Under the pieces are notes generated by a model. That model did no database searches, was not told the origin of the DNA, and was given only the letters and a program-made list of their open reading frames with translations. A stretch of 24,000 nucleotides of DNA from Savagea faecisuis (GTDB taxonomy: Bacteria > Bacillota > Bacilli > Bacillales_A > Planococcaceae): NCBI RefSeq assembly GCF_042675605.1, contig NZ_JBHTJF010000025.1, positions 12,944-36,943 of the forward strand, read 5' to 3'. Each line of letters begins with the position of its first letter. Positions within the stretch are counted from its first letter, which is position 1. Below, piece after piece: positions 3,463-19,150 of this stretch. The position numbers and the translations under genes are program-made.

Positions 3463-5787
3463 ATGGAAGAACAATTACAAGAGCGCTTACTCGACTTGAT
3501 GCGTCACCCGAAGTATTCACCGAGTACAGTCGCACAAATCGAAGAACATTTACAACTCGATGGTGCAGAACAGTTTAAGCAGTTGGTGAAAACATTAGTT
3601 CAGTTAGAACAGAGAGGGGAGATTGTACGTTCCAGAGCGAATCGTTACGGCGTACCAGAGCGGATGAATCATTTGAAAGGCCGCTTTATCGGACACGCAA
3701 AAGGGTTCGGCTTCGTCGCGCCGATGGAAGAGAAGATGGATGACATATTCATTCCACCGAACGCAACGAATGGCGCACTAGATGGTGATACCGTTCTCGT
3801 ACAAGTAGCTGAACATTCTCACGGAGATCGTCGAGAAGGGGAAGTGACGAAAATTGTCGAACGTCATAAACGTTCCGTCGTCGGAACATTTTACGGTTCG
3901 GAAGAGTATAGCTACGTCGTACCCGATGACAAAAAGATTCCGATCAACATTTTCATCGAAGCGGGCAAAACGCTCGGTGCGATGGAAGGACATAAAGTTG
4001 TCGTCGAAATGACGAGCTATCCGACTGAAATTTCAGGCGCAACTGGTTATGTGACGAAAGTGCTCGGTCATAAAAATGACCCAGGCGTCGATATTTTATC
4101 GATCGTTTACAAACATGGCATCCCGACAGAATTTCCAGAAGAAGTGATGGAACAAGCGAACGCTATTCCAGATCACGTCTTACCTGAACAGATGGAAGGA
4201 CGCATGGACTGCAGACAAGACTTGACGATTACGATTGACGGAGCGGATGCGAAAGACTTAGATGACGCGATTTCGGTCGAACGAATGGAAGACGGCACGT
4301 TCATTTTAACGGTGCACATTTCAGACGTCAGTTATTATGTGACGGACGGTTCACCGATGCAGGAAGAAGCGTATGAACGTGGAACGAGTGTCTACTTAAT
4401 CGACCGCGTCATCCCGATGTTGCCACACCGACTTTCGAACGGAATTTGTTCGTTAAATCCAGGCGTTGATCGCTTAACGATGTCATGTCGCATGCATATC
4501 GACGAATCAGGAAAAGTGCTCGACCACGAAATTTTCGAATCGGTCATTAACTCGAAAGAGCGTATGACGTACGATGATGTGTATCACATTATCGACCACC
4601 ATGATGCGGAATTAATGGAGAAGTACGAACATGTCGTTCCGATGTTATTCGATATGGCGAAGCTTGCGAAAATTTTACGAACACAACGCTTCGGACGCGG
4701 GGCAATTGACTTCGACTTTAAAGAGTCGAAAGTGATCGTCGACGAAGAAGGATGGCCGACAGAAATCGAAATGATTGAGCGTACCGTATCAGAACGCTTA
4801 ATCGAAGAGTTTATGCTAGCAGCGAACGAAACTGTCGCCGAACATTTCCACTGGATGCAGTTGCCGTTTTTATACCGAATTCACGAAAATCCGAAAGAAG
4901 AAAAATTACAACGTTTCTTTGAGTTTATTACCCATTTCGGTATTTCGGTGAAAGGGGTCGGCAATACGGTACATCCACGTGCCTTACAAGAAATTATCGA
5001 CTCGATCGCAGGCTTACCAGAAGAAACCGTCATTTCTACGATGTTGCTTCGTTCGATGCAACAAGCGAAATACTCGGATCAAAGTCTCGGTCACTTCGGA
5101 TTATCGACAGAGTTTTATACGCACTTCACGGCGCCAATTCGTCGATACCCAGACTTAATCGTCCACCGTCTCAGTCGCACGTACTTGTTAAAAGGCGAAA
5201 CGGACAAAAAGACGACGGAATATTGGACGAAAGAATTGCCGGAAATTGCGACACATACGTCGAGCTGTGAACGACGTGCCGTTGATGCAGAACGCGACGT
5301 AGAAGCGTTGAAAAAAGCGCAATTTATGGTCGACAAAGTCGGCGAAAACTTCGAAGGTGTCATTTCAAGCGTGACGAATTTCGGTATTTTCATCGAATTG
5401 GACAATACAGTAGAAGGACTCGTCCACGTTCGCGATATGCGGGATGATTACTACAACTTCGACAGTCGCACGATGATGATGATTGGCGAACGTACCGCAA
5501 AACAGTACCGCATCGGAGATAAAGTCGCAATTAAAGTGACGAATGTCGTCCCAGAAGAAGGAACGATTGACTTCGCTTTATACAATCCGAATGAACCGGA
5601 ACGTCAATTTACGAAAAACCGTAAACCACGCGTCATTCAAACGGAAAAGAAACCGCGTCAACGCGCGAAGAAAAAAGGCAATGCGCCGATTGAACGCACG
5701 GAGCGCAGCGGTCAAAAAAAAGAACGTAAATTTTACGAGACGATCGCTAAAAAATCAGCGAAAAAACGTCGTCGTAAACGAAAATAA
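3463..5787 (+). CDS. rnr: ribonuclease R (3'-5' exoribonuclease), 774 aa
   Basis: ATG at 3463 after AGGAGGAG (the track ORF starts 33 nt earlier in the same frame). RNB catalytic region (DGADAKDLDDAISV), C-terminal S1 domain (FEGVISSVTNFGIFIEL) and a K/R-rich tail. Confidence 0.93.
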   Translation: MEEQLQERLLDLMRHPKYSPSTVAQIEEHLQLDGAEQFKQLVKTLVQLEQRGEIVRSRANRYGVPERMNHLKGRFIGHAKGFGFVAPMEEKMDDIFIPPNATNGALDGDTVLVQVAEHSHGDRREGEVTKIVERHKRSVVGTFYGSEEYSYVVPDDKKIPINIFIEAGKTLGAMEGHKVVVEMTSYPTEISGATGYVTKVLGHKNDPGVDILSIVYKHGIPTEFPEEVMEQANAIPDHVLPEQMEGRMDCRQDLTITIDGADAKDLDDAISVERMEDGTFILTVHISDVSYYVTDGSPMQEEAYERGTSVYLIDRVIPMLPHRLSNGICSLNPGVDRLTMSCRMHIDESGKVLDHEIFESVINSKERMTYDDVYHIIDHHDAELMEKYEHVVPMLFDMAKLAKILRTQRFGRGAIDFDFKESKVIVDEEGWPTEIEMIERTVSERLIEEFMLAANETVAEHFHWMQLPFLYRIHENPKEEKLQRFFEFITHFGISVKGVGNTVHPRALQEIIDSIAGLPEETVISTMLLRSMQQAKYSDQSLGHFGLSTEFYTHFTAPIRRYPDLIVHRLSRTYLLKGETDKKTTEYWTKELPEIATHTSSCERRAVDAERDVEALKKAQFMVDKVGENFEGVISSVTNFGIFIELDNTVEGLVHVRDMRDDYYNFDSRTMMMIGERTAKQYRIGDKVAIKVTNVVPEEGTIDFALYNPNEPERQFTKNRKPRVIQTEKKPRQRAKKKGNAPIERTERSGQKKERKFYETIAKKSAKKRRRKRK

Positions 5788-5803
5788 ATGAGAGGTGAGC
5801 CAG

Positions 5804-6271
5804 ATGGCAAAAGGACAAGGGAAGGTCGTCGCCGTCAATCGTAAAGCGAATCATAACTTTGCGATTGAGGAGACGATCGAAGCAGGACTCGTTTTACAAG
5901 GAACAGAAATTAAATCGATTCGCGCAGGCAAAGTACAAATCGCCGATGCATTCGTACTTGTGCGAAACAACGAAGCGTGGGTATCGAATATGCACATTAG
6001 CCCGTATGAACAAGGGAATCGATACAATCACGATCCCGTCCGCGCACGTAAACTGTTGTTGCATCGTCATCAAATCGATAAACTGCAAGGCAGTGTCCAA
6101 CAAGACGGTTACGCGATCGTTCCGTTGAAAGTATATTTGAAAAACGGCTTTGCGAAATTGTTAATCGGACTCGGAAAAGGGAAGAAATTGTACGACAAGC
6201 GTCACGACTTACGTAAAAAAGATGCACAACGTGAGATGGAACGTGCCTTCAAAGCAAAACAGCAATATTGA
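5804..6271 (+). CDS. smpB: SsrA-binding protein SmpB
   Basis: ATG at 5804 after GAGAGGTGA. The product [42 protein letters not shown]... is a typical SmpB, and the gene sits immediately upstream of tmRNA. Confidence 0.93.
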
Positions 6272-6296
6272 TACTTGGCTGGAAATTTGTTATACT
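6268..6296 (+). promoter_or_regulatory. sigma-A type promoter for ssrA precursor
   Basis: TTGATA (6268-6273), a 17-nt spacer ending in TGT (extended -10), then TATACT (6291-6296). Confidence 0.6.
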
Positions 6297-6362
6297 ATTG
6301 GAGTACGTAGAGCTTTGCCTCTATTTCTGTATACGTGTAGAGTGGAACACTCTCCCAATTGC

Positions 6363-6723
6363 GGGGACGTTACGGATTCGACAGGGGTACTTGAGCTTGA
6401 GCTGCGCGTCGGAGGGATCGGCTCCGTCAGAAACGTCAAGCCAATAATAACTGGCAAACAAGAACAAAACTTAGCTTTCGCAGCGTAAGCTGACGAAACT
6501 GCCTTTACTGTCTATCGCCCATGTAGTACGGATAAAGGCTCAACTTTAGTGGGATACGTCTTTTCGCTTCCTTCTGTAGCGAGAGAAAGAGAATAATCAG
6601 AATAGCACGCGGGACGCCTTGATTGGTGGCATAACGACGTGTGAAATGTAAGTAATCAATCTACACGCGTAGACGCTTGGGTGGCAGGGCCTTTGGACGC
6701 GGGTTCGACTCCCGCCGTCTCCA
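6363..6723 (+). ncRNA. ssrA: tmRNA (SsrA)
   Basis: 5' end GGGGACGTTACGGATTCGACAGGGG and 3' end GGACGCGGGTTCGACTCCCGCCGTCTCCA (tRNA-like domain). The internal tag frame at 6453-6488 encodes GKQEQNLAFAA followed by a stop. Confidence 0.92.
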
Positions 6724-6738
6724 TACATCGTGATGGAC

Positions 6739-6775
6739 GAAAGCATCGATTTCTGAAAAGAGATCGATGCTTTTT
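6739..6775 (+). terminator. Rho-independent terminator after ssrA (also copy 1 of a three-copy repeat)
   Basis: AGCATCGAT / ATCGATGCT 9-bp stem followed by TTTTT. The same ~39 nt recur at 19151-19190. Confidence 0.75.
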
Positions 6776-6989
6776 GTGTTTAGAAAATATTACAGAACCA
6801 ACATGGTCTATAAATAACTACTATTTGCACGTTCCATAAAATCAGCATGACATAATTAGTGAACAAACATAATCAGCTTGGGGTCCCGTCACATACCTAT
6901 CAAGCTAAGCACATCAATACCCCCAACATGAAAAAAAACGCTATTCTTTCTGTAACATCAATAGTTTACAAGAAAGGATGGCGTTTTTG

Positions 6990-7151
6990 ATGAATCGAAT
7001 TCTATCCAATGAATTGCATCTTTTCGCACAAGAATTACGCGATTGTTTATCTCCAGCAGTGCTACAAGAAATCGCCAAACATGTGGGCTTTGTCAAACGC
7101 AAAAGTAAATATCAAGCCAATGAACTCCTTTTGAAATTCTTTATTACTTAA
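6990..7151 (+). pseudogene. N-terminal fragment (53 codons) of an IS4-family-like transposase
   Basis: My own translation gives MNRILSNELHLFAQELRDCLSPAVLQEIAKHVGFVKRKSKYQANELL... This resembles the N-termini of IS4-family transposases as I recall them. The frame dies at 7151 and no DDE domain follows. Confidence 0.45.
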
Positions 7152-7203
7152 ACTATCGGCTAATATATCTTGTAGTTAAGTTAGTATAAATGATGTGGGA
7201 CAT

Positions 7204-7243
7204 ACAAAAAAACATTCCCAAAGCGGGATTGTTTGGGAATGTT
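7204..7243 (-). terminator. Rho-independent terminator of the blaI/M56 operon
   Basis: AACATTCCCAAA / TTTGGGAATGTT perfect 12-bp stem. On the minus strand it is followed by a T-run (A-run at 7205-7212 on +). Confidence 0.65.
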
Positions 7244-7338
7244 TAAAGGCTAAAATTTAGATTTTAAAATTCATCAAATGAATAACTGGAGTGACGCTAA
7301 GTCCATTAATCATATATAAAGACTCAGCATCACAATTT

Positions 7339-8871
7339 CTATGGTGTAGATTTCATATAACGTGGTGTAGTAGCTATAGGATACTGATTTAGGGCAGGTA
7401 AATAATTATTATTCGTTGCCAATCCGCTAAAACTAAAATAAAATGCCACACGTTCGTCTATGTTCTTCTGATCAATTGCTTGTATAAAGTCTGCCAATCT
7501 ATTTTCTACATAATTTGGTGCGGTGAAATCTGCAAAGGATACCGATTTCAACTCATTAACAGGCAATAAATAAGATTCAATTAGGCTATTGAGCTCATCA
7601 AGTTCGATAGGTGCTAGTAATTCATAATCATAGTCAATATAGATGACTGTTGTAAATTTTTCTCCATATTCTTTGTGTACAATTTCAACCGGATAACGAT
7701 ATCTTGCTTCCGTTCCAATGACACCAGCTGAGAATCTGTTTTGGTAGCGTTCGTTATTAAGAGAAGGCTCTGCTGGTACAGTTTTTTCACCCTTCGTTGA
7801 ATCAACAATCAAATAATCCGTAGTAAAGTTACCTCTAGACGCACCGTTTAAAATGGATTCTTTCATAAATGTTTCATCTAGATAGTTAATTGGCGTACTT
7901 GAAACAGCAAAGGCTGAGCTAATAGCAGTACCACCTGTTATTAATAAAATAATGATTATAAGTATGAAGATGCCCGATTTTTTCTTTCCACTGCTCATAA
8001 TTGCGTGAATTCTTTTTTGTAAAAAATGTGAGTTGCCCGCAAAATTAGTAGAAAAAACACCGATTGGTTTTTTCGTCATTTCGGTATGAAGAATGGCTTG
8101 ACTATATGTTTTTCTTAATGGGTCATCTGAATTTTTTATTACTTCATCATCACAAGCTAATTCACACAGTTGATCTAACTCTTTTGCGAAACGATAAAAG
8201 AGTGGGTTGAACCAATGAATTGCGCTTACGAATAGAATGAAAGCCTTAAACCATAGATCCTTTCGTTGTAAATGCACGAGCTCATGCTTCAAAATCATGT
8301 TTAACTCTTGCTTTTCATAGTCATTTATAGGAAGCCAAATCGTTTGCTTTATAAATCCTGTTAACATCGGTGAATGAATACAACTGGATTGTTTTAAGCT
8401 AATTTCCTTCGTAATTGTCATTTCCTCTTTCACTTGCTCTAGCAATTGAAGCGTATGAGGTTCAACAACCAATTGCCCCCATCTGTTTACTGTTTGCATA
8501 AAGCGATAGTGTTTAAATAGATGCACTGCTAAAAATAGGATGATTCCTCCAATCCAAAGCGACATCAAAACGTGCCAAATTGAAAGTGAGGACATTGTTT
8601 CAACAGTGGATGCCATAAGTGTTATCTCACTACTCTTTGCTGGAACCAGTTCCATCGAAGGCAGCTGCATAGGTTCAGATAGATGAACAATCTTTTTAGA
8701 AATTTTGAAGGTAAATGGCAATATAAATCCAATCAAAATAGCAAGCCAGCTATAATAAAGCCATTTCGCACTGTATCGCTTCAAAAGGAAAGGTGTAACT
8801 ACTACATACAGTATGCCAATAAACGTCATGATGACGGATTTAAACAGTAAACCTACCATGATACTTTGCAT
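7339..8871 (-). CDS. M56-family (BlaR1/MecR1-like) membrane metalloprotease / signal transducer with a non-PBP extracellular C-terminal domain, 510 aa
   Basis: N-terminal multi-TM region with HELVH (HExxH) followed by QRKD, as in BlaR1 peptidase domains. A further TM segment (GIFILIIIILLITGG) precedes ~200 aa that lack an obvious SxxK penicillin-binding motif. The gene abuts a BlaI-family gene upstream (1-nt intergenic gap). Confidence 0.8.
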   Translation of the reverse strand: MQSIMVGLLFKSVIMTFIGILYVVVTPFLLKRYSAKWLYYSWLAILIGFILPFTFKISKKIVHLSEPMQLPSMELVPAKSSEITLMASTVETMSSLSIWHVLMSLWIGGIILFLAVHLFKHYRFMQTVNRWGQLVVEPHTLQLLEQVKEEMTITKEISLKQSSCIHSPMLTGFIKQTIWLPINDYEKQELNMILKHELVHLQRKDLWFKAFILFVSAIHWFNPLFYRFAKELDQLCELACDDEVIKNSDDPLRKTYSQAILHTEMTKKPIGVFSTNFAGNSHFLQKRIHAIMSSGKKKSGIFILIIIILLITGGTAISSAFAVSSTPINYLDETFMKESILNGASRGNFTTDYLIVDSTKGEKTVPAEPSLNNERYQNRFSAGVIGTEARYRYPVEIVHKEYGEKFTTVIYIDYDYELLAPIELDELNSLIESYLLPVNELKSVSFADFTAPNYVENRLADFIQAIDQKNIDERVAFYFSFSGLATNNNYLPALNQYPIATTPRYMKSTP

Positions 8872-8872
8872 A

Positions 8873-9241
8873 TTAATCCCTCTTTTCTTCCACCCATTTC
8901 AGTAAAGATGCTAAATCCTCATCGGAAATATGATCTGATTTATAAAGTGTATTGACCAAATTCAAAACAGACTTTTTATGATAAAGCTCCATAAAATGCT
9001 CCGTTTCAAAACCTAGGTAAGCCTCTTTTTCGATCAATGGATAGTAAAATCTCTCTTTACCTTGTTTTTCACTGCGAAGAAACCCACGCTCCGTTAATCT
9101 TTTCATAAGCGTTACGACCGTTTGGATTTTCCAGCCTTTTTCCTGACCGATTTGCTCCATGATGATTCCAGTTGTAATAGGTGGATGGCTTTCCCAAACA
9201 ATCTTCATCACTTCAAACTCTGTTTCAGGTAATCTTTTCAT
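8873..9241 (-). CDS. BlaI/MecI/CopY-family winged-helix transcriptional repressor, 122 aa
   Basis: MKRLPETEFEVMKIVW...ITTGIIMEQIG...WKIQTVVTLMKRLTERGFL is the typical penicillinase-repressor family N-terminal domain. The gene is paired with the M56 gene. Confidence 0.85.
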   Translation of the reverse strand: MKRLPETEFEVMKIVWESHPPITTGIIMEQIGQEKGWKIQTVVTLMKRLTERGFLRSEKQGKERFYYPLIEKEAYLGFETEHFMELYHKKSVLNLVNTLYKSDHISDEDLASLLKWVEEKRD

Positions 9242-9260
9242 GTATATTCCCCCTTATCCA

Positions 9261-9313
9261 TTTAAGTCAATTGTCTTAAATGTAAATATACAACTTCCTT
9301 AAATATTTTTCAA
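9261..9313 (-). promoter_or_regulatory. promoter plus palindromic operators of the blaI/M56 operon
   Basis: On the minus strand: TTGAAA (9313-9308), 17 nt, then TATATT (9290-9285). The 20-bp near-palindrome TTTAAGTCAATTGTCTTAAA (9261-9280) and the TGTA-n4-TACA dyad (9281-9292) overlap and follow the -10. The TACA/TGTA motif is typical of BlaI/MecI operators. Confidence 0.55.
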
Positions 9314-9769
9314 TCTTTTCCCACTGATTAAAGTAAATTCAACTTGGTATTGATACACCAGCTATCCCTCCATTCATTTTTTCTGGAGTATAGAAGATAG
9401 CGGTCACAACGTGCAAAGCGCTGTTTTTTAAATTTATTTAGATTTTTTTACTTGAAGGTGGTATTAACAAGTAGAAGATTTATTGCGAACAATGTTAAAC
9501 GAGGAAAAAAATCAGGCGAAATAATAAAACCATACTAAGTAATTTTAGCCGTACAGTTTTATGAAGTACTGTAATAGTGATTCTACAAAATTATAATTTT
9601 GTAATTCTGCACCAAATAAACAACACAATATAACCAAGCCGATAATCATAATCATGAAAATAAAAATCAAAGTGAATGTATAAATCATAAAAGAAAAATG
9701 GGAATCTGTTTAGCTGTAGCATTACAGATGTGAGGAATAGTTGTATATTGAAATACAATTTATTAAGAA

Positions 9770-10021
9770 TTGAAGGTGAAAACAAAAGAAGCCCTTGAAA
9801 ACGAGCACCTTTCAACACTTTATGCCAAACATAAAGCAGATATCGAAAGTGCGTTCGGTAATCTAAAGGTGACGCTCACACGATTCCTACCGCGTGGCTT
9901 ATTAAAGACCCAAACAGAGTTTTGGGTTGATTCCATGGCTCATAATTTGAGGAAGTTGGCGGGCAAACGCCTCGCCAATTCTTCCAATACAGCAAAGGTC
10001 CTTGCTACCTTTTTCGCTTAA
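9770..10021 (+). pseudogene. C-terminal fragment of an IS1182/IS5-superfamily-like DDE transposase
   Basis: ...ADIESAFGNLKVTLTRFLPRGLLKTQTEFWVDSMAHNLRKLA fits the C-terminal (E..FG.LK....F..RGL.K...EF.....AHNL.KLA) pattern of such transposases. No upstream catalytic domain is present. Confidence 0.45.
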
Positions 10022-10045
10022 TAATCAAAATTTCTAAATTTAAGA

Positions 10046-10534
10046 TTAGTTATATGCGCCATTAGCATATATAAATAACGATATTGTACCCCCACCTGTT
10101 TTACCATTTGAACCAGTATAGGATACTGTAGAATTAACTTTTGCAAGACGAGTGTTGTTATCTATAATAGAAGTATTTGTTGCTTTCAAGTTAGAGCTAG
10201 TTGGTCTATAAAGTATCTCTGTTTTAGGTTTTGTAACTGCTACCACTTTTCCATCATATACAGCAGTTGCAGTTATTTTAACTGTGCCAAGTCTTGCATT
10301 ATTATAAAGATCAGTCATTTCAACGCTCTTAGATGGATATACTAGACCTCGCGTTAATGTAGGAAGAACTCTAAATTGAATCCCGTCAATTATGTAAACT
10401 TGCTCAGAATTATCTGAAATATTAATTTCGAGAAGGAAGCCTTCGTCTTCTAATTCTTCATTTTGTGCAAAAGCAGCTACTGGTGTTAGGATACATAAAA
10501 TCATTGTTAACATACTAATCAGCCATTTTTTCAT
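10046..10534 (-). CDS. secreted protein of unknown function, 162 aa
   Basis: Sec signal peptide (MKKWLISMLTMILCILTPVAAFA/QNE) and RBS AAAAAGGAGAG. I recognise no domain. Confidence 0.6.
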   Translation of the reverse strand: MKKWLISMLTMILCILTPVAAFAQNEELEDEGFLLEINISDNSEQVYIIDGIQFRVLPTLTRGLVYPSKSVEMTDLYNNARLGTVKITATAVYDGKVVAVTKPKTEILYRPTSSNLKATNTSIIDNNTRLAKVNSTVSYTGSNGKTGGGTISLFIYANGAYN

Positions 10535-10562
10535 TGTTAAATTCTCTCCTTTTTATTCTTTC

Positions 10563-10698
10563 TTGTATAACGGTTTGAAGCTTCCAGACTTTATCACTCC
10601 CTATCTTCTCCATCAGAATCCTGTCGTAATTGGAGGATTTATTTTCCCAAAACAATCTTCATAGCTTCAATCTCTGTTTCAGGTAACTTATTATTCAC
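10563..10698 (-). pseudogene. decayed 5' remnant of a second blaI-family gene
   Basis: GTG start at 10698 after GGGAGGT. The product NNKLPETEIEAMKIV parallels MKRLPETEFEVMKIV of the intact gene. An extra T (GTTTT vs GTTT) shifts the frame. After correction, WENKSSNYDRILMEKIGSDKVWKLQTV aligns with WESHPPITTGIIMEQIGQEKGWKIQTV. Homology ends about 30 nt before the secreted-protein ATG. Confidence 0.65.
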
Positions 10699-10706
10699 AC
10701 CTCCCG

Positions 10707-10759
10707 TTTAAGTCAATTGTCTTAGTTTGTAAGATACAGCTATCTTAAATGATTGTCAA
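10707..10759 (-). promoter_or_regulatory. second copy of the BlaI-type promoter/operator
   Basis: TTTAAGTCAATTGTCTTAG (10707-10725) matches 9261-9279 at 18 of 19 positions. On the minus strand: TTGACA (10759-10754), 17 nt, then TATCTT (10736-10731). Confidence 0.55.
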
Positions 10760-11054
10760 TATAGATTTGTAATAATAAATAAAAAAAGAGTATATTAAAC
10801 ATTTTTAATAAAAAGTTACAGTAAAATAAAATCTCTTATAAACTAGATAAAATTAGATGTGAGGTCATTATGGTTGTAATTGTTGTTCAAGGTCCATGAT
10901 GGGAGATTGAGTTTTGGGCCACGGCACTATTGATACTTGGAAAATTTATAAGTGAATAAAGATGGAGGATGCTAGTGAATTGGAAGCCCTTTTTAAAAAA
11001 TTTAGTGATTAAATTTATTTTTTTATACAACTCAAATACAAATAACGTTCCCCA

Positions 11055-11479
11055 ATGACACTTGAACTGCACCCCAATTTTAACGGTGAAATCATTACCT
11101 ATACAATTGGATCTAGACCTACGTATTCATTAGTTTCGGAGATGTTAGAGAAGACTTTGGAGAGATTGCCAGAGGAACATCAGCTACTGATGCATTCCGA
11201 TCAAGGCTGGTATTATCAAATGAAACAATATCGCCCTACTCTTAAATCAAGAGGCATTGTGCAAAGCATGTCTCGTAAAGGCAACTGTTACGATAACTCG
11301 GGGATGGAGAATTTCTTTGGCATTATGAAGTCAGAATTCCTCTACTTCAAGGAATTTGCGCGCATTTTAAAGAAGAACTAAAAAAATATATCAACTATTA
11401 CAACACGAAACAGATCAAGGCAAAATTAAAAGGCATGAACCCGATACAATATCGAACACATGCCCAACTAGCTGCCTAA
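11055..11479 (+). pseudogene. IS3-family transposase (OrfB integrase core), C-terminal fragment with frameshift
   Basis: NGEIITYTIGSRPTYSLVSEML...HSDQGWYYQ...SMSRKGNCYDNSGMENFFGIMKSEF is the IS3/IS150-type DDE core. The tail TKQIKAKLKGMNPIQYRTHAQLAA continues in another frame to 11479. An IS3-like right end ...GTGTCTAATTTTTGGGGGTCACTTCA runs to about 11512. The N-terminal two-thirds is missing. Confidence 0.75.
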
Positions 11480-11585
11480 ATTAACCGTGTCTAATTTTTG
11501 GGGGTCACTTCATGTTGGGAAACATTTGATTCTTAACCTACCAATTTCCAAAAGGTGGGCTGTAGCCTTGTTAAAAAAAGATTAC

Positions 11586-11786
11586 CTAATCATTAAATTC
11601 CCAAAATAATTCATCGAATGTTTTATTCAGTGCTTTGCAAATAGATATACAAACAGATAGTGTTGCGTTGTATTTTCCTAATTCAATCAAACCAATCGTT
11701 TGCCTTGTGACCCCAACTTTTTCTGCTAAATCGCCTTGTGACATATCCAATGCGATTCGTGCTGTCTTCATTCGTACATTTTTCAT
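11586..11786 (-). CDS. XRE-family helix-turn-helix transcriptional regulator, 66 aa
   Basis: RIALDMSQGDLAEKVGVTRQTIGLIELGKYNATLSVCISICKAL is a canonical Cro/C1 HTH. Confidence 0.8.
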   Translation of the reverse strand: MKNVRMKTARIALDMSQGDLAEKVGVTRQTIGLIELGKYNATLSVCISICKALNKTFDELFWEFND

Positions 11787-11807
11787 TGCTTATCTTTTTC
11801 CAATTCT

Positions 11808-12086
11808 TCAAGTGTTTTTCCACTTACACGCTCGCTCTTTTCCTTTCGTATTCCTAACTTCTTCCGAAAAGATACCCAAATTTGTCGAACGTACTAGATA
11901 ATAAATCGCCCCAGTAATTAAAATAATCATTTCTGTTCCAAGATTTTCAAATCCACCTTTTCCAAAAATGACTTTCAATACCATACTGCCACTACAAATC
12001 ACTAGCACAAAAACATAAATTTCTCGATAAATTTTGTTTTGCAAATTTGTAATACGCTCATCCTGAATCATTTGACGCTTAAACAT
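11808..12086 (-). CDS. small membrane protein (2 predicted TM), co-oriented upstream of the XRE gene
   Basis: The ORF has two hydrophobic stretches (IYVFVLVICSGSMVLKVIF, MIILITGAIYYLV) and lies 21 nt upstream of the XRE gene. The pairing resembles common Firmicute membrane-protein/XRE two-gene units. Confidence 0.5.
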   Translation of the reverse strand: MFKRQMIQDERITNLQNKIYREIYVFVLVICSGSMVLKVIFGKGGFENLGTEMIILITGAIYYLVRSTNLGIFSEEVRNTKGKERACKWKNT

Positions 12087-12306
12087 ACCTCAACCTCCAT
12101 CTCTCGAATTAACTTTAAATATACAATATACATTGCAAATAAGTTTATCCATTTTTCTATAAAATGAATATTGCAGATGAGAAAGGCCATTAAGAATGTA
12201 CTTCAATGCCCCAATTGTTGAATAAGAAAAATGCACCCAAACCGACGTTTGGGAACATTATCTCCCTTAACGTTGTAAACTCGCATTTTTCTGACGGGAC
12301 GCCAGC

Positions 12307-12618
12307 TTACACAACCATTTTGCCCAAGCGGTTAATGTACCAGACGAGTATGACAATGCCCAATACAATTAAAATAGAAATCATTTGAGCTGCAATTGAG
12401 CCGGCAACTGCTACACCGAACGGCAAAATAAGTGTAAGTACCCCACAAATCATAAGAAAAAGCCCAACTGCTTTAGCTAATTTGTTTTTATCTCCTTTAA
12501 AAGTTTCTTCTTTAAATCCTGCAATGAGTGTAAATTGTTATTTCTTCCATATCATGTAACTAAAAAAGAAAAGCAAACTACTTGTGAAAAGGCAAACTAT
12601 TACCCCACCTATAATCAT
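12307..12618 (-). pseudogene. DUF3784-like small membrane protein interrupted by an in-frame TAA
   Basis: My own translation: RBS GGAGG, then ATG (12618-12616) MIIGGVIVCLFTSSLLFFFSYMIWKK, TAA at codon 27, then in the same frame QFTLIAGFKEETFKGDKNKLAKAVGLFLMICGVLTLILPFGVAVAGSIAAQMISILIVLGIVILVWYINRLGKMVV and a stop. 104 codons in total. Confidence 0.6.
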
Positions 12619-13010
12619 AAAAGAACCTCCTAATTCACTTTAATCAATCAGGACTTAGTCATGAACGTCGTATTTAAAATTTAGAAATCAAATGTATAAA
12701 GAAGAGTTTAATATGTTATTTGGAAGCCTTTGTATAGAAGTGAATCTGTCTTCTGATGAAATCATTTAAAGGATGCTAGGTGATGAGAAAAGTAGCATTG
12801 CTTAATTATAAAGGGTTATCTTTAGAAACCGTTAGAGTATACATTGCAAGAGGAGAATATTTGATTAGCATTTTATAATGTTATAGCCATTCGAAGCTCT
12901 TATTCATTACAAATTTATTATTGAATTTGAAAATGCATATTTTCGTTGAATGCGGATCTAGATAATGATTTTCCCCTATCAAAACGCGATGGTAAAAGAA
13001 AGCTATTCAT

Positions 13011-13050
13011 TTTTAAGATTATACCTTATACTAGGACTATAATCTTAAAA
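13011..13050. promoter_or_regulatory. perfect 13-bp inverted repeat (candidate operator) containing a TATAAT box
   Basis: TTTTAAGATTATA (13011-13023) and TATAATCTTAAAA (13038-13050) are exact reverse complements separated by 14 nt, ending 7 nt before the 13058 ORF. Confidence 0.4.
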
Positions 13051-13057
13051 AGGTTGT

Positions 13058-13360
13058 ATGTCCATGATAATTAATATCAATCCTGATGTGATAGAAACTC
13101 AACTAGTAGGATTTGTTCCCGAGTGTATCATCAATTATTATGCCATTCAGTGTGCGAGCCTTGCAGTATATATGCCTCCAGGTGTTTTAAAACATTTAAA
13201 AAAGCGTGATTATTGGGATGATTTCCTCAAGTACTATCAAGATATACCTAGCATAATTGCAACACCTGATTATGCTGGACAAAATCCAAAAGAACCTAAT
13301 ACGATAGAAATATATAAAGGTTATTTGAGGTGGGAAAGGTTCCCCACGCGCTATCTGTAA
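13058..13360 (+). CDS. hypothetical protein, 100 aa; possibly the N-terminal part of a PBECR/Barnase-EndoU-like phage/ICE nuclease-family protein
   Basis: ORF with a weak RBS. The stretch GVLKHLKKRDYWDDFLKYYQDIPSIIATPDYAGQNPKEPNTIEIYK resembles (from memory only) the H-containing N-terminal region of small PBECR-type proteins. The last ~13 residues look unrelated. Confidence 0.4.
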   Translation: MSMIININPDVIETQLVGFVPECIINYYAIQCASLAVYMPPGVLKHLKKRDYWDDFLKYYQDIPSIIATPDYAGQNPKEPNTIEIYKGYLRWERFPTRYL

Positions 13361-13382
13361 AAATAGTTACCAGAGATCAGGA

Positions 13383-13410
13383 TTGCCGCCCTGCTGATAG
13401 CCTTTATAAT
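13383..13410 (+). promoter_or_regulatory. candidate sigma-A promoter for the RT leader/ncRNA
   Basis: TTGCCG (13383-13388), 16 nt, then TATAAT (13405-13410). A second candidate, TTGTAA (13667-13672), 18 nt, TATAAT (13691-13696), lies nearer the RT. Confidence 0.4.
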
Positions 13411-13545
13411 CAATAAGCCTCGTTCATTTATTATGAAGGAGGTATTTTATATTTTGTACTAGATAGTAAACAACAAAGTGTAAAATTTGCTTTTTATCCA
13501 CTTAAATGGGATAATATAGTTGTTCTGTGAAAATAGTCGCAGAAG

Positions 13546-13557
13546 TGTTGAGTTTCA
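13546..13557 (+). repeat. left copy of a 12-nt direct repeat (TGTTGAGTTTCA)
   Basis: Matches 13696-13707 (TGTAGTGTTTAA) at 10 of 12 positions, at an offset of exactly 150 nt. Confidence 0.5.
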
Positions 13558-13695
13558 CGCTTGTCAAGGTTATAAATATTTATAACCTCAACAAGCAACC
13601 TAGTGAAATCTACCAAGAACAGCACAAGCTGGATCTCTGAAGAAGAACTAGACAAACTTAGCAGCATTGTAATTACCTCCATATGGTAAGTATAA

Positions 13696-13707
13696 TGTAG
13701 TGTTTAA
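13696..13707 (+). repeat. right copy of a 12-nt direct repeat (TGTAGTGTTTAA)
   Basis: See 13546-13557; pattern TGTnGnGTTTnA. Confidence 0.5.
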
Positions 13708-13799
13708 GAACAAGAACTCCGTTTTATACGGGGATAGTGGTCAACAGAGCATTCATCTCGGATGAATGACACCAAATTAGGCTAGGAGGTTTTCTGGTT

Positions 13800-15203
13800 A
13801 TGAATCAGAGTAATGGACCACAACACCAATTACATAACCTCTCTAGCTCTTCTATTATTAAATGGGAGAAGTACAAGACTAAAGGTTATTTGCATTTTGA
13901 TGAACGGATACATATAGGGCATATGAAGGCTAATCTTTTGAATGAAGATTGGGTCGCTTCGTATGCTTTTTTACCGTTTATACATTTTGAGATGAATTCT
14001 AAAAGATATGTAACGATTAAAGAAGTGGATGAATTGGGTCAGGTAATTAAAAGAAAAGAACAAGGGAAGCCTAAAAGCCGTAAAATATTTTATGCTGCCC
14101 ATAAGGATGGCTACATCTATAAATATTATGGTGACTTATTAAACAATGCTTATAATAAATATGCAGTTGACAATCATATTGATGACAGCGTGATAGCATA
14201 TAGAAATAATAAACCAGGAAAAAACAATATTGATTTTGCGTTTGAAGTATTCAATCATCTGTTTAAGTTTGAAAATGCAGTAGTCATCACAAGTGATTTC
14301 ACTAAGTATTTTGATAACATATCACACCAAACATTGAAACAGAATATAGGAAGAGTACTAGGTGTAGAAACCTTAAAACGAGATTGGTATCAAGTATTTA
14401 AGAATCTTACACGATTTACATATGTCGATAGGAAAGATATTGATATGTTTTTAGAAGCAAAGCATGGAAGAACATTGAACAAAAAAATCAAGACATATAA
14501 AATTAATCGAATTATGACTTCAAGTGAATTTAGGACGTTTAAAAAAGAATATTTAAAACATAATCCCAATCCTGATTCTTATGGAATTCCACAAGGATCA
14601 AGTATGAGTGCAGTTTGTTCTAATGTACATCTGATTGACTTTGATAAAGAAGTAATTGACTGGTGCAATAAAAGGTCTGCTAATGCAATGTATAGAAGAT
14701 ATTGTGATGATTTAATAGTAATTATTCCTCTTGAAAGACAAAATACAAGAGAGTTTGAATCAATCCGAAATGAGTTATTTGAAATCATTGATAAATATAA
14801 AAGTGACGGATTAGATGTGCAACCTGAAAAAACAGAAATACGGTTATGGGATGGTGACTATATACTAGATGAGCAATTACAGCCATCTAAATTAGATTAC
14901 TTGGGGTTTGTGACTGATGGACAGATGATTCAATTAAGGGAAAAAAGCCTTTTCAATTATTATACTAGAGCATATCGCAAGGCCAAAACAGTAAAACGTA
15001 TTGAATATGCGACAGGACGACCGGGACCCAAAAGGTCATTGTATGATTTATACACCCATCTGGGATTCGATTACAAAAATCGTGGGAACTTCGTTACTTA
15101 TGCTTATAGAGCACATAGGAAAATGTGTCAGTTGCCAGTGAAGAGTCTGATTAAGAAGCAGGTTAAGAGGCATTGGGGCAAGATACATAGAAGATTAAAT
15201 TAA
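13800..15203 (+). CDS. stand-alone reverse transcriptase (defence-type UG/Abi/DRT-like), 467 aa
   Basis: RT motifs:
- SDFTKYFDNISH (motif A, residues 165-176).
- GIPQGSSMSAVCSNVHL (motif B, residues 262-278).
- RRYCDDLIVI (YxDD box as YCDD, nt 14700-14711).
- KTEI and YLGF (motifs D/E).
There is a ~165-aa N-terminal extension and a ~90-aa basic C-terminal tail. No maturase, endonuclease or other fused domain is recognisable. RBS AGGAGG lies 10 nt upstream of the ATG. Confidence 0.9.
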   Translation: MNQSNGPQHQLHNLSSSSIIKWEKYKTKGYLHFDERIHIGHMKANLLNEDWVASYAFLPFIHFEMNSKRYVTIKEVDELGQVIKRKEQGKPKSRKIFYAAHKDGYIYKYYGDLLNNAYNKYAVDNHIDDSVIAYRNNKPGKNNIDFAFEVFNHLFKFENAVVITSDFTKYFDNISHQTLKQNIGRVLGVETLKRDWYQVFKNLTRFTYVDRKDIDMFLEAKHGRTLNKKIKTYKINRIMTSSEFRTFKKEYLKHNPNPDSYGIPQGSSMSAVCSNVHLIDFDKEVIDWCNKRSANAMYRRYCDDLIVIIPLERQNTREFESIRNELFEIIDKYKSDGLDVQPEKTEIRLWDGDYILDEQLQPSKLDYLGFVTDGQMIQLREKSLFNYYTRAYRKAKTVKRIEYATGRPGPKRSLYDLYTHLGFDYKNRGNFVTYAYRAHRKMCQLPVKSLIKKQVKRHWGKIHRRLN

Positions 15204-15471
15204 ATTTTATTAATACCGAGGGAAAGAAGCCTTAGCAACAGGAAAATCTGACAATTACCTAGGATAAACATTGAATTTGTAATCGGTATTTCTATATGGG
15301 CTAAGACATGGATTGTAATCATTGTAACGACATTATTACTTTAGCCTAACACCACTAAAACATGAAGCACAACTGATCCTAAGTATGATTATAAGTTTTG
15401 GTGGAATAGCAATTTATCTTTGGATCTTGTCTAAAATAGAAAAAGTAAGTGAAAATTGACGATTACAAAGA

Positions 15472-15676
15472 TCGTACGAAGGAGACTTTACCTGCATGAA
15501 GTGCTCGCTCGTTATATTTGAATGGTTAGTGTAGTTGGAGCATTGCTCGTCGTGTTGTTTATTGGTTTAAGTATCCGGATGTTGTCTGTGAAGTGTGCGA
15601 TGGATGAAGAGTTCCGCTAGTGATTTATTGTTAAAGAGAAAGTATCAGTTTCTGAAAACAAAATTGGTGCTTTTCT
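15472..15676 (+). pseudogene. decayed copy of the small membrane-protein gene at 18938-19135 plus its terminator (copy 2 of the repeat)
   Basis: Aligns with 18925-19190. Differences from the intact copy:
- The start is lost (CTGCAT vs ATGAAT).
- CGA is changed to TGA at codon 10.
- A 69-bp in-frame deletion lies between two TTGCTC direct repeats.
- The terminator stem is degenerate. Confidence 0.75.
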
Positions 15677-15803
15677 CGTTTAAGTTTAGCTTTTTCATTA
15701 TTTTAGACATTTCGTGTCGATGGGATTAGGCAAGGAAGAACCATTTTCATTCTGCTCTAAACACTCTACTTTCTTTATTTTCTAAAAATTTAAATAAAAT
15801 CTG

Positions 15804-15832
15804 TTGACATTGTTAAAAAGACAGGATATGAT
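15804..15832 (+). promoter_or_regulatory. sigma-A promoter of the S-box leader
   Basis: TTGACA (15804-15809), 17 nt, then TATGAT (15827-15832). Confidence 0.65.
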
Positions 15833-15860
15833 AACAACTAATTTCATAAATTAACGATAA

Positions 15861-16023
15861 CTCTTATATCGAGAAGCGGAGGGACTGGCCCTGTGAAGCT
15901 TCGGCAACCATTGATTTTTTATCAAACGGTGCCAATTCCAGCAAGGGAAACCTTGGAAGATGAGAGGAGCAGTGCATATTTCGTATGACGCGACCTCTTT
16001 TTATATAGGGGTCGCTTTTTACT
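15861..16023 (+). promoter_or_regulatory. SAM-I (S-box) riboswitch with terminator expression platform
   Basis: CTCTTATATCGAGAAGCGGAGGGACTGGCCCTGTGAAGCTTCGGCAACC...GGTGCCAATTCCAGCAAG...GAAGATGAGAG matches the S-box consensus. A GCGACCTC/GGGGTCGC hairpin plus T-run follows at 15989-16023. Confidence 0.9.
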
Positions 16024-16061
16024 TTTAATGCACGTTCTACATAAAAGAAGGAGGGGTGTTT

Positions 16062-16205
16062 ATGGGAAAAGAAAAGGATGAAGTGCTTGCAATTATTGAA
16101 CAAGCCTTGCAAGAATTGCAGTTTGGAGAGGTTCATATTACCATTCATGAAGGACAAGTTGTGCAAGTTCATCGCACAGAAAAATTTAGAATATCCACGT
16201 CGTAA
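16062..16205 (+). CDS. YezD-like (DUF2292) small protein, 47 aa
   Basis: Not in the ORF track (<60 aa). RBS AAGGAGGGG, then ATG at 16062. The product MGKEKDEVLAIIEQALQELQFGEVHITIHEGQVVQVHRTEKFRISTS fits the G.V.I.vH.gqvvq...tEK.R pattern of YezD proteins, which are commonly linked to sulfur/methionine operons. Confidence 0.65.
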   Translation: MGKEKDEVLAIIEQALQELQFGEVHITIHEGQVVQVHRTEKFRISTS

Positions 16206-16227
16206 GAAGCTGACTAGACAACTAGAG

Positions 16228-16286
16228 GCCTCTTCGTTTGAAGATTTGTGCTCCTAAGCACGTCATCTTCATCGAAGGGGCTTTTT
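16228..16286 (+). terminator. compound hairpin plus T-run between the yezD-like ORF and metQ
   Basis: Outer stem GCCTCTTCG (16228-16236) / CGAAGGGGC (16273-16281) with one mismatch. Inner stems GAAGAT/ATCTTC and GTGCT/AGCAC. TTTTT follows at 16282-16286. The metQ ATG lies 25 nt downstream with no obvious promoter of its own. Confidence 0.5.
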
Positions 16287-16310
16287 ATATGGAGAAAAGG
16301 AGAATGCATA

Positions 16311-17141
16311 ATGAAACAACTACTAACATGGTTCCTCGTATTGAGTACTGTTCTTATATTTACAGGATGTGACGGAGAAGCAAAGGGTGAAACAAATCAA
16401 ACCATTACGATTGGAGCTACAGCTGGTCCATATAGTGATCAATTAAAAGAAGGAATCGCACCGATTTTAAAAGAGAAAGGATTCACGTTAAACATTATTG
16501 AATTTCATGATTATATTCAGCCGAATAATGCATTAGAAGAAGGGGATGTCGATGCGAATTTATTCCAAAACCGTTTATACTTATCGAATTTTAACGAGCA
16601 TCAAGGGACGAAGCTTACTGCGCTTTTTGCTGTCCCGACTGCTCCCATTGCGATGTATTCAAAACGACATCAATCGCTCGACGATCTTGAGCCAGGAATG
16701 ACGATTTCATTACCGAACGATACGGTGAATTTAGCTCGTTCGCTCAATATGTTAGAGAGCTACGGGTGGTTAACAGTTGATCCAAATGTTAACCCGATTA
16801 CAGCCTCTGAAAAAGATGTTATCGATAATCCGTATCATCTAAAGTTGAATCCGTTAGAAGCGGCAGCGACCCCTCGTTCTCTTGAGGATGCTGATTTTGC
16901 TTTCGTCAATGGAAATTATGCGATTGCTTCTGGATTGAAGTTGACAGAAGCAGTGGATGTTGAACAAACATCGGAAGATTTTTTAATTTATTTAACGATT
17001 CGTGAAGGAGAGGAAGATGAGCCGTTCGTTCAAGCATTAAAAGAAGCGTATGAATCGGAAGAATTTTATACTTATACACTAGAACATTCCCAAGGGTACG
17101 TCTTACCTCCATATCAACAAGAACAGGAGGCGAAAAAATGA
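16311..17141 (+). CDS. metQ: methionine ABC transporter substrate-binding lipoprotein (MetQ/NlpA family)
   Basis: ATG at 16311 after AAAAGGAGAA. Lipoprotein signal MKQLLTWFLVLSTVLIFTGC. NlpA-family body (IGATAGPYSD..., FVNGNYA). The stop overlaps the metN start (ATGA). Confidence 0.85.
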   Translation: MKQLLTWFLVLSTVLIFTGCDGEAKGETNQTITIGATAGPYSDQLKEGIAPILKEKGFTLNIIEFHDYIQPNNALEEGDVDANLFQNRLYLSNFNEHQGTKLTALFAVPTAPIAMYSKRHQSLDDLEPGMTISLPNDTVNLARSLNMLESYGWLTVDPNVNPITASEKDVIDNPYHLKLNPLEAAATPRSLEDADFAFVNGNYAIASGLKLTEAVDVEQTSEDFLIYLTIREGEEDEPFVQALKEAYESEEFYTYTLEHSQGYVLPPYQQEQEAKK

Positions 17142-18139
17142 TTGAAGTACGCCAAGTAACGAAACGATACGGTAATGTGCTCGCATTGGATGATGTATCG
17201 GTAACGATTGAACGCGGTGATATTTTTGGCATGATTGGCTACAGTGGAGCAGGGAAAAGTACATTGCTTCGTTGTTTGAATGGATTAGAGCAACCGACTT
17301 CAGGTGAAGTTATTATTGATGGCATCGACATTACAAAAGTATCTAAACGTGCATTGCGTCAAATACGACAAAAAATTGGAATGATTTTTCAACATTTTCA
17401 TCTTATTCAAACAAAAACCGTATACCAAAATGTGGCTTTTTCTATGAAGGTAGCTGGAAAATCAAATGCTGAAATTGCCGAACGTGTGCCAGAACTGTTG
17501 CATCTTGTCGGACTGTCAGATCGAGCGAATCATTACCCTGCTCAACTTTCAGGAGGACAGAAGCAACGAGTGGGAATCGCGCGAGCGTTAGCAAATAATC
17601 CAGATATTTTATTATGCGATGAAGCGACATCCGCTCTCGATCCGACAACTACAGCATCTATTTTGCAGCTTTTAAAGAAAATTAATGAAGAACTCGATAT
17701 TACGATTATTCTCATTACGCACGAAATGGAAGTCGTACAAACGATTTGCCATCGCGTTGCGGTAATGGAAGACGGGAAAATTGTAGAGGAAGGGGATGTG
17801 TATCATATTTTTGCCTCCCCCGAACAGCCACTGACAAAGCAGTTTGTTGATACTGTTCATTCATTAACATTGCCTGCTCGATTGTTAGAGGAGCGGACAG
17901 GAGACATTTTACAATTAACGTTTCGAGGAGATGATGCCGAGCAAGCAATCATTTCAAAGGCGGCAACTCGTTTTGCAGTTGATCTCAATATTTTACATGG
18001 ACAAATTACGTACATTCAAGATCGAGCGCTCGGAACGTTGATTGTCGAGTTGTTAGGTGAACCGAAAGAACGAAAACGGGCGGCGGCTTGGTTAACGGAA
18101 CGAACGAATCGATTGGAGGTGCTCGGCTATGCTAGTTAA
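17138..18139 (+). CDS. metN: methionine ABC transporter ATP-binding protein with C-terminal NIL domain
   Basis: Walker A GYSGAGKST, signature LSGGQKQR, Walker B ILLCDEATSALD, and a C-terminal NIL-type domain (...VDLNILHGQITYIQDRALGTLIVEL). Confidence 0.92.
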   Translation: MIEVRQVTKRYGNVLALDDVSVTIERGDIFGMIGYSGAGKSTLLRCLNGLEQPTSGEVIIDGIDITKVSKRALRQIRQKIGMIFQHFHLIQTKTVYQNVAFSMKVAGKSNAEIAERVPELLHLVGLSDRANHYPAQLSGGQKQRVGIARALANNPDILLCDEATSALDPTTTASILQLLKKINEELDITIILITHEMEVVQTICHRVAVMEDGKIVEEGDVYHIFASPEQPLTKQFVDTVHSLTLPARLLEERTGDILQLTFRGDDAEQAIISKAATRFAVDLNILHGQITYIQDRALGTLIVELLGEPKERKRAAAWLTERTNRLEVLGYAS

Positions 18140-18791: not shown

Positions 18792-18937
18792 AAAAGTGAC
18801 CATTACCCTGGTATATATTTAGATATTCCACTTAAATAATTTCAGTTTTCCGATGTGACAGCAGTAGCGCTAAGGTATAAGATGAGAGTGATATGCTTGA
18901 TTGATGCATGTTGTTAATCATCGGAAGGAGAATTTCC

Positions 18938-19135: not shown

Positions 19136-19150
19136 TTTACTGCTCATAAG

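Follow-up and report, generated by a model that had tools for sequence, protein, structure and literature searches.

A decayed, integrase-less block behind the tmRNA gene of Savagea faecisuis and its DRT2 reverse transcriptase cassette

Genomic islands of the Islander class target tRNA and tmRNA genes and carry tyrosine integrases, and Williams's 'Traffic at the tmRNA gene' is said to deal with islands of this kind. The present analysis concerns a tmRNA locus of Savagea faecisuis (Planococcaceae): a 24,000-nt stretch of RefSeq assembly GCF_042675605.1 (contig NZ_JBHTJF010000025.1, positions 12,944 to 36,943 of the forward strand), referred to in full as the window, in which an AT-rich mosaic block lies directly behind the tmRNA gene, ssrA, and carries a reverse transcriptase (RT) cassette of the DRT2 defence type. 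The genome under study, G000, is a 2.56-Mb draft of 56 contigs, and the window lies on contig C25. An initial annotation, made from the letters of the window alone, had described an island at 6779–15470 that was inserted downstream of tmRNA and had no integrase left.

Described tRNA/tmRNA-targeted islands with tyrosine integrases include the ssrA islands of Klebsiella (bioRxiv 10.1101/2020.11.02.365908). In Dehalococcoides, ssrA-linked genomic islands form tandem acquired layers within tens of kilobases downstream of ssrA (PMC3146451, PMC2764846); 15 of the islands have no integration module, and it has been proposed that the older ones are fixed in place once deletion and amelioration have wiped out the marks of their transfer (PMC3146451). 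Two papers on DRT2 treat tmRNA solely as a possible rescuer of the stop-less neo mRNA, and a position behind ssrA goes unmentioned in both (PMC12039810; 10.1101/2024.05.08.593200). Seen beside these systems, the S. faecisuis block is a known kind of feature, namely the decayed remains of an island, no longer mobile, at a hotspot of integration that is itself well known.

The block at the tmRNA 3′ end and its borders

The block stands out from the rest of the genome in composition. GC content in 500-nt windows falls from 0.45–0.48 to 0.34–0.35 between positions 6500 and 6750 and remains at 0.29–0.37 as far as ~15500. Over 6727–15276 it is 33.9% (0.339), against a genome mean of 41.3% (0.413–0.415); genome windows of 8.55 kb have a standard deviation of 0.020, and just 0.58% of them are as low in GC, which places the block in the lowest 0.6%. 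The dinucleotide signature distance (δ*) of the block is 175, compared with 44 ± 26 for genome windows (top 0.2%), and GC at third codon positions (GC3) is 0.19–0.37 in the open reading frames (ORFs) of the island versus 0.37–0.48 in those of the left flank. The compositional step that had been estimated by eye was thus borne out by calculation, in GC and codon usage alike, and the fall behind ssrA is indeed abrupt, with the left border at 6727 by comparison rather than at 6779. The recovery placed near 15470 is gradual instead of abrupt: on the right side GC climbs slowly, lying at 0.35–0.38 until about 16250, the mean over 15277–19187 is 0.405 (40.5%), ordinary for the genome, and the border obtained by comparison, 15276/15277, is 194 nt to the left of 15470.

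To place the borders, 30 relatives were searched with both flanks, followed by 200 family genomes, and the loci of five relatives (G004, G006, G001, G012 and G009) were aligned to the window. Among the 30 relatives, only the sister genome, G004, has DNA common to both flanks, with identities of 97.4% over 5716–6725 and 97.3% over 15277–21595 and none between. The block as a unit was found neither in other genus members nor in the 200 family genomes, where pieces of it occur dispersed and the best matches of its parts are spread over other genera; G006 is the single genus member with a weak RT match, located elsewhere. Because G004 has wholly different DNA between the same two flanks, and the block is absent from other genus members, it is not core DNA, in agreement with the acquired origin first proposed. 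Comparison with related genomes, suggested by the initial annotation as a means of finding the junctions and the empty site, delivered the junctions through G004; a site with both flanks and nothing between was found in none of the 30 relatives and 200 family genomes, of which G004 alone has the right flank.

Upstream of ssrA, the usual row gpmI-eno-secG-esterase-rnr-smpB is in place. The ssrA tag peptide is GKQEQNLAFAA, and the tmRNA 3′ end forms the left anchor of the island: homology to all relatives ceases at 6725–6728, 0–2 nt past tmRNA, and the seven loci compared all diverge right after a common ...TCTCCAT, the first bases past the tmRNA 3′ end. By these alignments, the left border of the block is the tmRNA 3′ end itself. 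The right border, in turn, falls within the gene for an HAAS_TM membrane protein, of which tblastn covers just residues 195–255 in G000, split over two frames; G004 keeps the whole 257-aa gene together with its PadR partner. This right border is an illegitimate, deletion-type junction inside a truncated gene. A metagenome contig (L015; DATBUC010000059.1, 3111 bp) matches window positions 12430–15539 at 99.3% identity, and since this independent contig spans the right junction, the latter is not an assembly error. The contig carries the label Erysipelothrix sp. and most likely originated in an organism closely related to G000 and was misbinned.

The same site is occupied by integrative elements in relatives. 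In G004, a tyrosine integrase gene lies 130 bp past tmRNA, inside the different element held between the same flanks, and genes for a helix-turn-helix (HTH) protein, replication proteins of phage type and a MobL relaxase come after it. Copies of the tmRNA 3′ end, 21–22 nt long, form attL and attR there, the distal one (L002:14189–14212) on a contig that runs on into the right flank common to both genomes. Further copies of the tmRNA 3′ end were found 20.7 kb downstream in G009, ~17 kb downstream in G018 and on another contig in G005, as well as in G133, Ureibacillus and Exiguobacterium. Judged from these sequences, integration at the tmRNA 3′ end is clearly active in this lineage, as expected from the general reputation of tmRNA 3′ ends to which the initial annotation had appealed. 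The G004 element itself (L001:1–10292, L002:14189–18001) is an apparently complete integrative mobilisable element; it also encodes Phg_2220_C, IstB-like and Schlafen/AlbA_2 proteins, and AACGTAGTCA-like motifs lie close to both its ends.

For G000, a whole-genome Pfam search for tyrosine and serine recombinases (PF00589, Phage_integrase; PF00239, Resolvase) gave no match on contig C25, tblastn with three tmRNA-island integrases yielded no window match below E = 3, and no recombinase domain was detected by Pfam in the leftover small frames of the window. A second tmRNA 3′ end (attR) was not found genome-wide at up to 4 mismatches in 24, except for a tRNA-like chance match on contig C8; the same search does recover attR in G004, G133, Ureibacillus and Exiguobacterium. 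The motif AACGTAGTCA, a candidate arm-type integrase site seen near the att sites of G004, G009 and G012, does not occur in the block, its sole match in the window being a chance match with 1 mismatch in eno. No plasmid or phage carrying the block was found, known ones matching its insertion sequence (IS) fragments alone. The absence of a recombinase and of a duplicated tmRNA 3′ end, first noted by inspection, thus held under these searches, and because G000 has neither, self-excision of the block is not possible, as had been supposed. Among the features of a functional tmRNA island, the block has the position at the 3′ end and the foreign composition and absence from close relatives; it has neither recombinase nor attR.

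Origin of the block and competing explanations

We regard 6727–15276 as probably horizontally acquired DNA in the ssrA 3′-end hotspot, the decayed remnant of at least one tmRNA-targeted integrative element that was scrambled by IS insertions and deletions. A tyrosine integrase would have joined the attP of the element to the last ~21 nt of tmRNA, a step shown only for the different element of G004 and for relatives; cargo would then have built up, with newcomers displacing older DNA away from tmRNA, and the integrase and the distal attR would have been lost by deletion. A deletion at the right border would have removed the first ~194 codons of the HAAS_TM gene and its PadR partner, leaving a fixed remainder that could now change only via further deletion or homologous replacement through the conserved flanks. 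The points set beforehand as able to refute an island, a block shared by all related genomes in the same place or a flat GC profile at the borders, all came out in favour of one. Several observations nevertheless weigh against this history. No empty site is available, and since no genome has both flanks with nothing between, insertion is deduced from replacement and not seen directly; G000 holds no trace of an integrase or attR, so that the integrase step is drawn from relatives; and homologous replacement through the conserved tmRNA would also give a left border at the tmRNA end. In addition, the terminator hairpin just past tmRNA (copy A) is 97% identical to a terminator 12.4 kb downstream, which a simple model leaves unexplained, there is a single close comparator genome (G004), and the junction between tmRNA and terminator A is known from the assembly alone.

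The terminator of copy A does not follow tmRNA in any of the relatives compared. Copy A forms a near-perfect direct repeat with copy C (19151–19190), the two differing by one mismatch and one gap in 41 nt; the hairpin was found in G000 and G004 alone, with no other copies in the G000 genome and none in an exact 24-mer scan of metagenome contigs. A degenerate copy B, whose terminator is 65% identical to copy A, is present in G004 too. The true unit might accordingly be the 12.4 kb between the near-identical hairpins (6739–6779 and 19151–19190), with the hairpin and the small-ORF end ahead of it serving as a recombination site for serial cassette capture by a recombinase encoded elsewhere, the cassettes being the low-GC mosaic, then PadR-HAAS_TM, then riboswitch-metQNP, with copy B (15471–15674) as an inner boundary. 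The three copies do stand at joins between stretches of DNA that differ in origin (the match of PadR-HAAS_TM to Ureibacillus runs up to 15472, the point at which copy B begins, and metQNP, 15860–18776, lies between copies B and C), metQNP and the SDR and ADH genes behind it have no DNA match in other genus members, and other genes come after ssrA in G006 and G001. Such a unit is clearly unlikely, however, as G004 shares 15277–21595 with copies B and C yet lacks copy A and differs in the part to the left, the G000-specific block stops within a gene at 15277 and not at a module boundary, and the GC content of 15277–19187 is ordinary. A tandem ssrA island or cassette array would have a tmRNA-end copy per unit and a boundary element that recurs at unit borders in relatives, neither of which was found. 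The small-ORF/terminator module was tried as a diverged tmRNA end and rejected, its similarity to tmRNA being no higher than that of shuffled controls; the small 75-aa ORF was likewise rejected as a family-wide cassette boundary, its homologues being weak (29–38%) and single-copy in 9 others among the 200 genomes of the family. A module seen in three copies, and in two genomes, is thin evidence, and the same picture would arise from Campbell-type homologous insertion, or from local duplication then deletion. That the hairpin and small-ORF end form a recombination site for a recombinase encoded elsewhere, and that 6739–19190 is an integrase-less, terminator-anchored capture array and not debris, is more doubtful still.

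An integrase may also never have been involved in G000. An integrase-less block could have been imported from another strain by transformation or transduction and exchanged for the resident DNA through homologous recombination, with smpB-tmRNA as the conserved flank on the left side and shared accessory genes as that on the right, a course that we consider possible but on balance rather unlikely. Flanks 97–98% identical to G004 around an unrelated middle are the classic pattern of such an exchange, the block has no integrase, attR or arm-type site (AACGTAGTCA-like), and a second sample (L015) has the same junction. The right border lies, however, within a truncated, frameshifted gene and not in intact shared sequence, which argues for deletion, and integrase-driven traffic occurs at exactly this site in relatives; the exchange would explain the spread of the block and not its building, and is in that respect compatible with descent from an integrative element. 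That the block is an artefact of assembly or core DNA that was AT-rich from the start, for which the draft state (56 contigs) and the single close comparator might be invoked, is highly improbable and largely refuted by the absence of the block from G004 and all other genus members, by its extreme composition, by its IS fragments and a DRT2 cassette whose identity to other genera is at the level of horizontal gene transfer, and by the independent contig L015 in support of 12430–15539. The decayed remnant of a tmRNA-targeted element therefore remains the preferred explanation.

This block is the newest layer, specific to G000, in a variable region behind ssrA that is larger and runs past 15470, as follows from the terminator repeat (6739/19151) and from broken synteny. 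The DNA at 15277–21595 is common to G000 and G004 only. Within it, the metQNP cassette is ordinary in GC and common to G004 only (at high identity), with its best outside match at 69% in G060 (15860–18776); a second, divergent metNPQ set on G000 contig C34 (229–232 kb) has 34–50% protein identity to that of the window. No DNA match to the SDR and ADH genes was found in the other genus members G001, G003, G005 and G006. The conserved genes that lie within ~6 kb of ssrA in G006 and G001 (contigs C12 and C141, respectively) are orthologues of those at ~40–53 kb of G000 contig C21. In G004 (contig C18) they are found ~46 kb past attR, on the same contig as the right flank, and in G000 they would be ~59 kb from ssrA if C25 and C21 abut, an adjacency inferred from G004; C21:1–24 kb is low in GC as well.

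The PadR-HAAS_TM pair of G004 (L002:8086–9361) is 88.6% identical to that of Ureibacillus (L049:9526–10769), making it another small horizontally exchanged cassette. Beyond 21595, where homology to G004 ends, an abiF RNA motif (21654–21690; Rfam, 40.1 bits) precedes a complete-looking IS (21818–23169) with a 389-aa DDE_Tnp_1 transposase and 44-nt imperfect inverted repeats (21818–21861 and 23126–23169), and 21596–23169 constitutes a second strain-specific patch.

The DRT2 cassette and its link to tmRNA

The RT locus picked out in the initial annotation is a DRT2 locus, with an RT of the UG2 class (Table 1). Homology of the cassette to other loci extends from the −35 region of its promoter as far as the stop codon of the RT, with unrelated flanks, and the ~330-nt leader is conserved alongside the RT, starting at the promoter, in all ten aligned homologue loci. 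The RTs of intact homologues are 460–468 aa in length. Repeats flanking the cassette, either target duplications or inverted ends, did not rise above shuffles. At the DNA level, the cassette is 86–87% identical in G133, G205 (Lysinibacillus sphaericus) and G068, which represent three other genera, and 81% identical in Ureibacillus (G197). In G068, the one genome checked in this way, smpB and tmRNA reach just ~68% and ~74% identity, respectively, versus 86–87% for the cassette; because the cassette is so much more alike across genera than these neighbours, it has been transferred horizontally. Judging by its homologues, the DRT2 RT would make repetitive cDNA from the leader RNA upon infection. 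Exact-protein look-ups of SmpB, the 75-aa small ORF and the RT returned no identical record. The skipping-rope RNA motif of the block overlaps the end of the PBECR3-like ORF and lies ~70 nt upstream of the cassette; since it sits outside the conserved cassette, it does not belong to the DRT2 unit common to other genera.

Among seven proteins tested, PADLOC recognises the DRT2 RT alone, and G000 therefore has a single recognised defence system at this locus and not the several clustered systems of a defence island. Of the initial description of an old, decaying defence or accessory island, the decay was confirmed, whereas 'defence island' proved generous.

At 8 of 12 close-homologue loci, DRT2 either follows tmRNA at a distance of 1.7–13.5 kb or adjoins a fragment of its 3′ end. 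The linkage was read from window positions 13470–15207 and from loci L008, L010, L017, L019, L020, L029, L030 and L034. Besides G000, the distance from tmRNA is 7.6 kb in G068, 6.1 kb in G111, 7.4 kb in G212 and 1.7 kb in Salinicoccus. In G133 it is 13.5 kb, placing DRT2 3 kb beyond attR, and in Exiguobacterium 7.4 kb, 2 kb beyond attR; in Ureibacillus, an attR-like fragment lies 2.4 kb past the RT. Exiguobacterium has the intact version of the arrangement, running from tmRNA through an integrase, restriction-modification genes and attR to an IS3 element and DRT2. In a class-wide sample of 400 evenly drawn genomes, 9 further DRT2 loci were found, and tmRNA lay within 16 kb in 2 of these, both from the Exiguobacterium family and one already counted. 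Overall, 9 of 20 distinct DRT2 loci are linked to tmRNA (the repeated Exiguobacterium locus being counted once), and the linked loci span Planococcaceae genera, Salinicoccus and Exiguobacterium. With tmRNA within 16 kb at just 2 of the 9 class-wide loci, a constant position of DRT2 beside tmRNA was ruled out, and the link is lineage-specific.

This link is best explained by tmRNA-specific vehicles together with the use of the site as a general defence hotspot. A functional tie of DRT2 behind ssrA-smpB, by which the stop-codon-less neo mRNA would be connected to trans-translation, is less likely even than the terminator capture array considered above and is unsupported here. The Salinicoccus locus combines a TIR protein with DRT2. 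In G068 (L010:1–19060), an integrase-less defence island lies behind tmRNA, with ISL3 and IS66 fragments, a SUKH protein, GmrSD, QueC-like and TatD proteins, an OLD-TOPRIM ATPase with a UvrD helicase (Gabija-like) and Cas3; the DRT2 copy in this island has no full-length ORF.

Contents of the block and comparison with known systems

The features of the window are collected in Table 1. The three transposase fragments noted initially were confirmed and belong to unrelated families. The full IS corresponding to the first is held by L014 (G062), where a 480-aa DDE_Tnp_1 ORF follows the matched stretch, and the rve piece is ~80% identical to multi-copy IS3-like elements (ISBth10/ISBce19 family) of many genomes and Bacillus plasmids. 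Gene remnants proved more numerous than the two pseudogenes first counted: there are four, namely the blaI 5′ piece, the DUF6773 half, the DUF3784 piece and the HAAS_TM 3′ end. Uninterrupted frames remain for the BlaI/BlaR1-type pair, the 162-aa ORF, the Xre regulator, the PBECR3-like ORF and the DRT2 RT.

Table 1. Features of the window, with positions counted from its first letter
Feature	Position	Strand	Evidence or remark
tmRNA (ssrA) gene; 3′ end 6723/6726	6363–6726	+	ARAGORN; Rfam RF00023, 183 bits
Low-GC mosaic block (island proper), 8550 bp, G000-specific	6727–15276	.	Composition and G004 comparison
Terminator hairpin copy A, 16-pair stem, 13 nt past tmRNA	6739–6779	+	Terminator scan
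IS 5′ end fragment, DDE_Tnp_1 transposase, ~57 codons left	6879–7151	+	96% identity to L014:9557–9807
BlaR1-type M56 membrane sensor-protease, 510 aa, frame uninterrupted	7339–8871	-	Pfam Peptidase_M56, E = 3.9e-54
BlaI-type repressor, 122 aa; promoter/operator 9258–9314	8873–9241	-	Pfam Penicillinase_R, E = 8e-26
DDE_Tnp_1_6 transposase, C-terminal fragment	9770–10021	+	PF13751, E = 5.5e-8, profile positions 63–124 of 125
162-aa ORF	10046–10534	-	No Pfam match; 73% identity to L013:11455–11982
Second blaI promoter/operator and decayed blaI 5′ remnant (~10563–10690)	10563–10760	-	Direct repeats D4, D6
IS3-family (rve) transposase fragment	11055–11512	+	Pfam rve, E = 1.2e-11
Xre-type HTH regulator, 66 aa	11586–11786	-	Pfam HTH_3, E = 2.8e-15
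DUF6773 gene remnant, N-terminal half	11808–12086	-	PF20563, profile positions 2–76 of 163
DUF3784 gene remnant, no start codon, N-terminus gone	12307–12534	-	PF12650, E = 7.8e-9, positions 21–92 of 94, stop-to-stop frame
PBECR3-like nuclease-fold small ORF, 100 aa	13058–13360	+	PF18812, E = 5e-9
Skipping-rope RNA motif	13320–13401	+	Rfam RF02924, 55.9 bits vs gathering score 36.7
DRT2 cassette: promoter, ~330-nt non-coding leader, 467-aa RT (13800–15203)	13470–15207	+	PADLOC Drt2 (PDLC03757), E = 1.2e-135; Pfam RVT_1
HAAS_TM membrane-protein gene, 3′ remnant, codons ~195–257 of 257, frameshifted; right junction	15277–15470	+	tblastn; G004 homology resumes at 15277
Degenerate copy B: small-ORF end and terminator	15471–15674	+	80–86% identity to 18917–19136
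SAM-I riboswitch and extra metQ-metN-metP cassette	15861–18791	+	Rfam RF00162, 94 bits; Pfam NlpA, ABC_tran/NIL, BPD_transp_1
75-aa small membrane ORF and terminator copy C (19151–19190)	18908–19190	+	Repeats D1–D3; A/C alignment
SDR and zinc-ADH genes	19234–21595	+	Pfam; 97% shared with G004 only

The region of blaR is 71–73% identical in DNA to the corresponding blaI-blaR operons in G018 and in G095, and a promoter-like site (9313–9285) lies ahead of blaI. The duplicated regulatory module of the initial annotation was recovered as 9190–9314 versus 10644–10760, at 77–88% identity. Its second operator copy immediately precedes the 162-aa ORF, both being on the minus strand, with a promoter-like site at 10759–10731, and this operator and blaI remnant match the blaI 5′ region of L012 and L013. 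On sequence grounds, the two partial bla copies of G000 look like complementary leftovers of a tandem operon duplication. As regards arrangement, G018 (L013:9351–11982) has a single operon, blaI-blaR-orf162, with the ORF directly after blaR; G000 has blaI-blaR without the ORF, plus an operator and blaI remnant fronting the 162-aa ORF.

Taken on its own, the block is a routine case of tmRNA genes gathering foreign DNA and of islands decaying and becoming fixed, and can serve in annotation and in telling strains apart. The live element of G004 and the dead remnant of G000 at one site form a natural pair for studying island turnover. Among the loci compared, the DRT2 cassette often travels with tmRNA-linked islands in Bacillales, and a Bacillales DRT2 lineage moving between genera behind ssrA makes it easy to search for more DRT2 variants and for the vehicles that carry them. 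Where it is linked to ssrA, DRT2 physically adjoins the ribosome-rescue genes that the DRT2 literature discusses for the non-stop neo mRNA.

In its position exactly at the tmRNA 3′ end, its foreign composition, its strain specificity and its accessory and defence cargo, the G000 block resembles tRNA/tmRNA islands, a canonical member of which, with integrase and 21–22-nt repeats, is held by G004 at the same site. It differs from them in having no integrase or tmRNA-end repeat and in its distal border, which is a deletion junction in a gene. The region is layered and partly ameliorated, as are the Dehalococcoides ssrA islands; those islands use the serine integrase DsiB and are each bounded by a 20-bp ssrA repeat, whereas no ssrA repeat is present in G000, where the terminator hairpin, which has no relation to tmRNA, is the sole boundary to be repeated. 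As in defence islands and integration-hotspot 'archipelagos', the same site clusters defence genes in relatives (G068, Exiguobacterium and Salinicoccus), but G000 has one recognised defence system, the rest being a signalling pair, regulators and debris. Finally, the cassette is like DRT2 (UG2; PMC12039810, bioRxiv 10.1101/2024.05.08.593200) in that its RT matches PADLOC Drt2 and a conserved leader travels with the RT, and it departs from the described systems as a Bacillales version of predicted function with a frequent position adjacent to ssrA.

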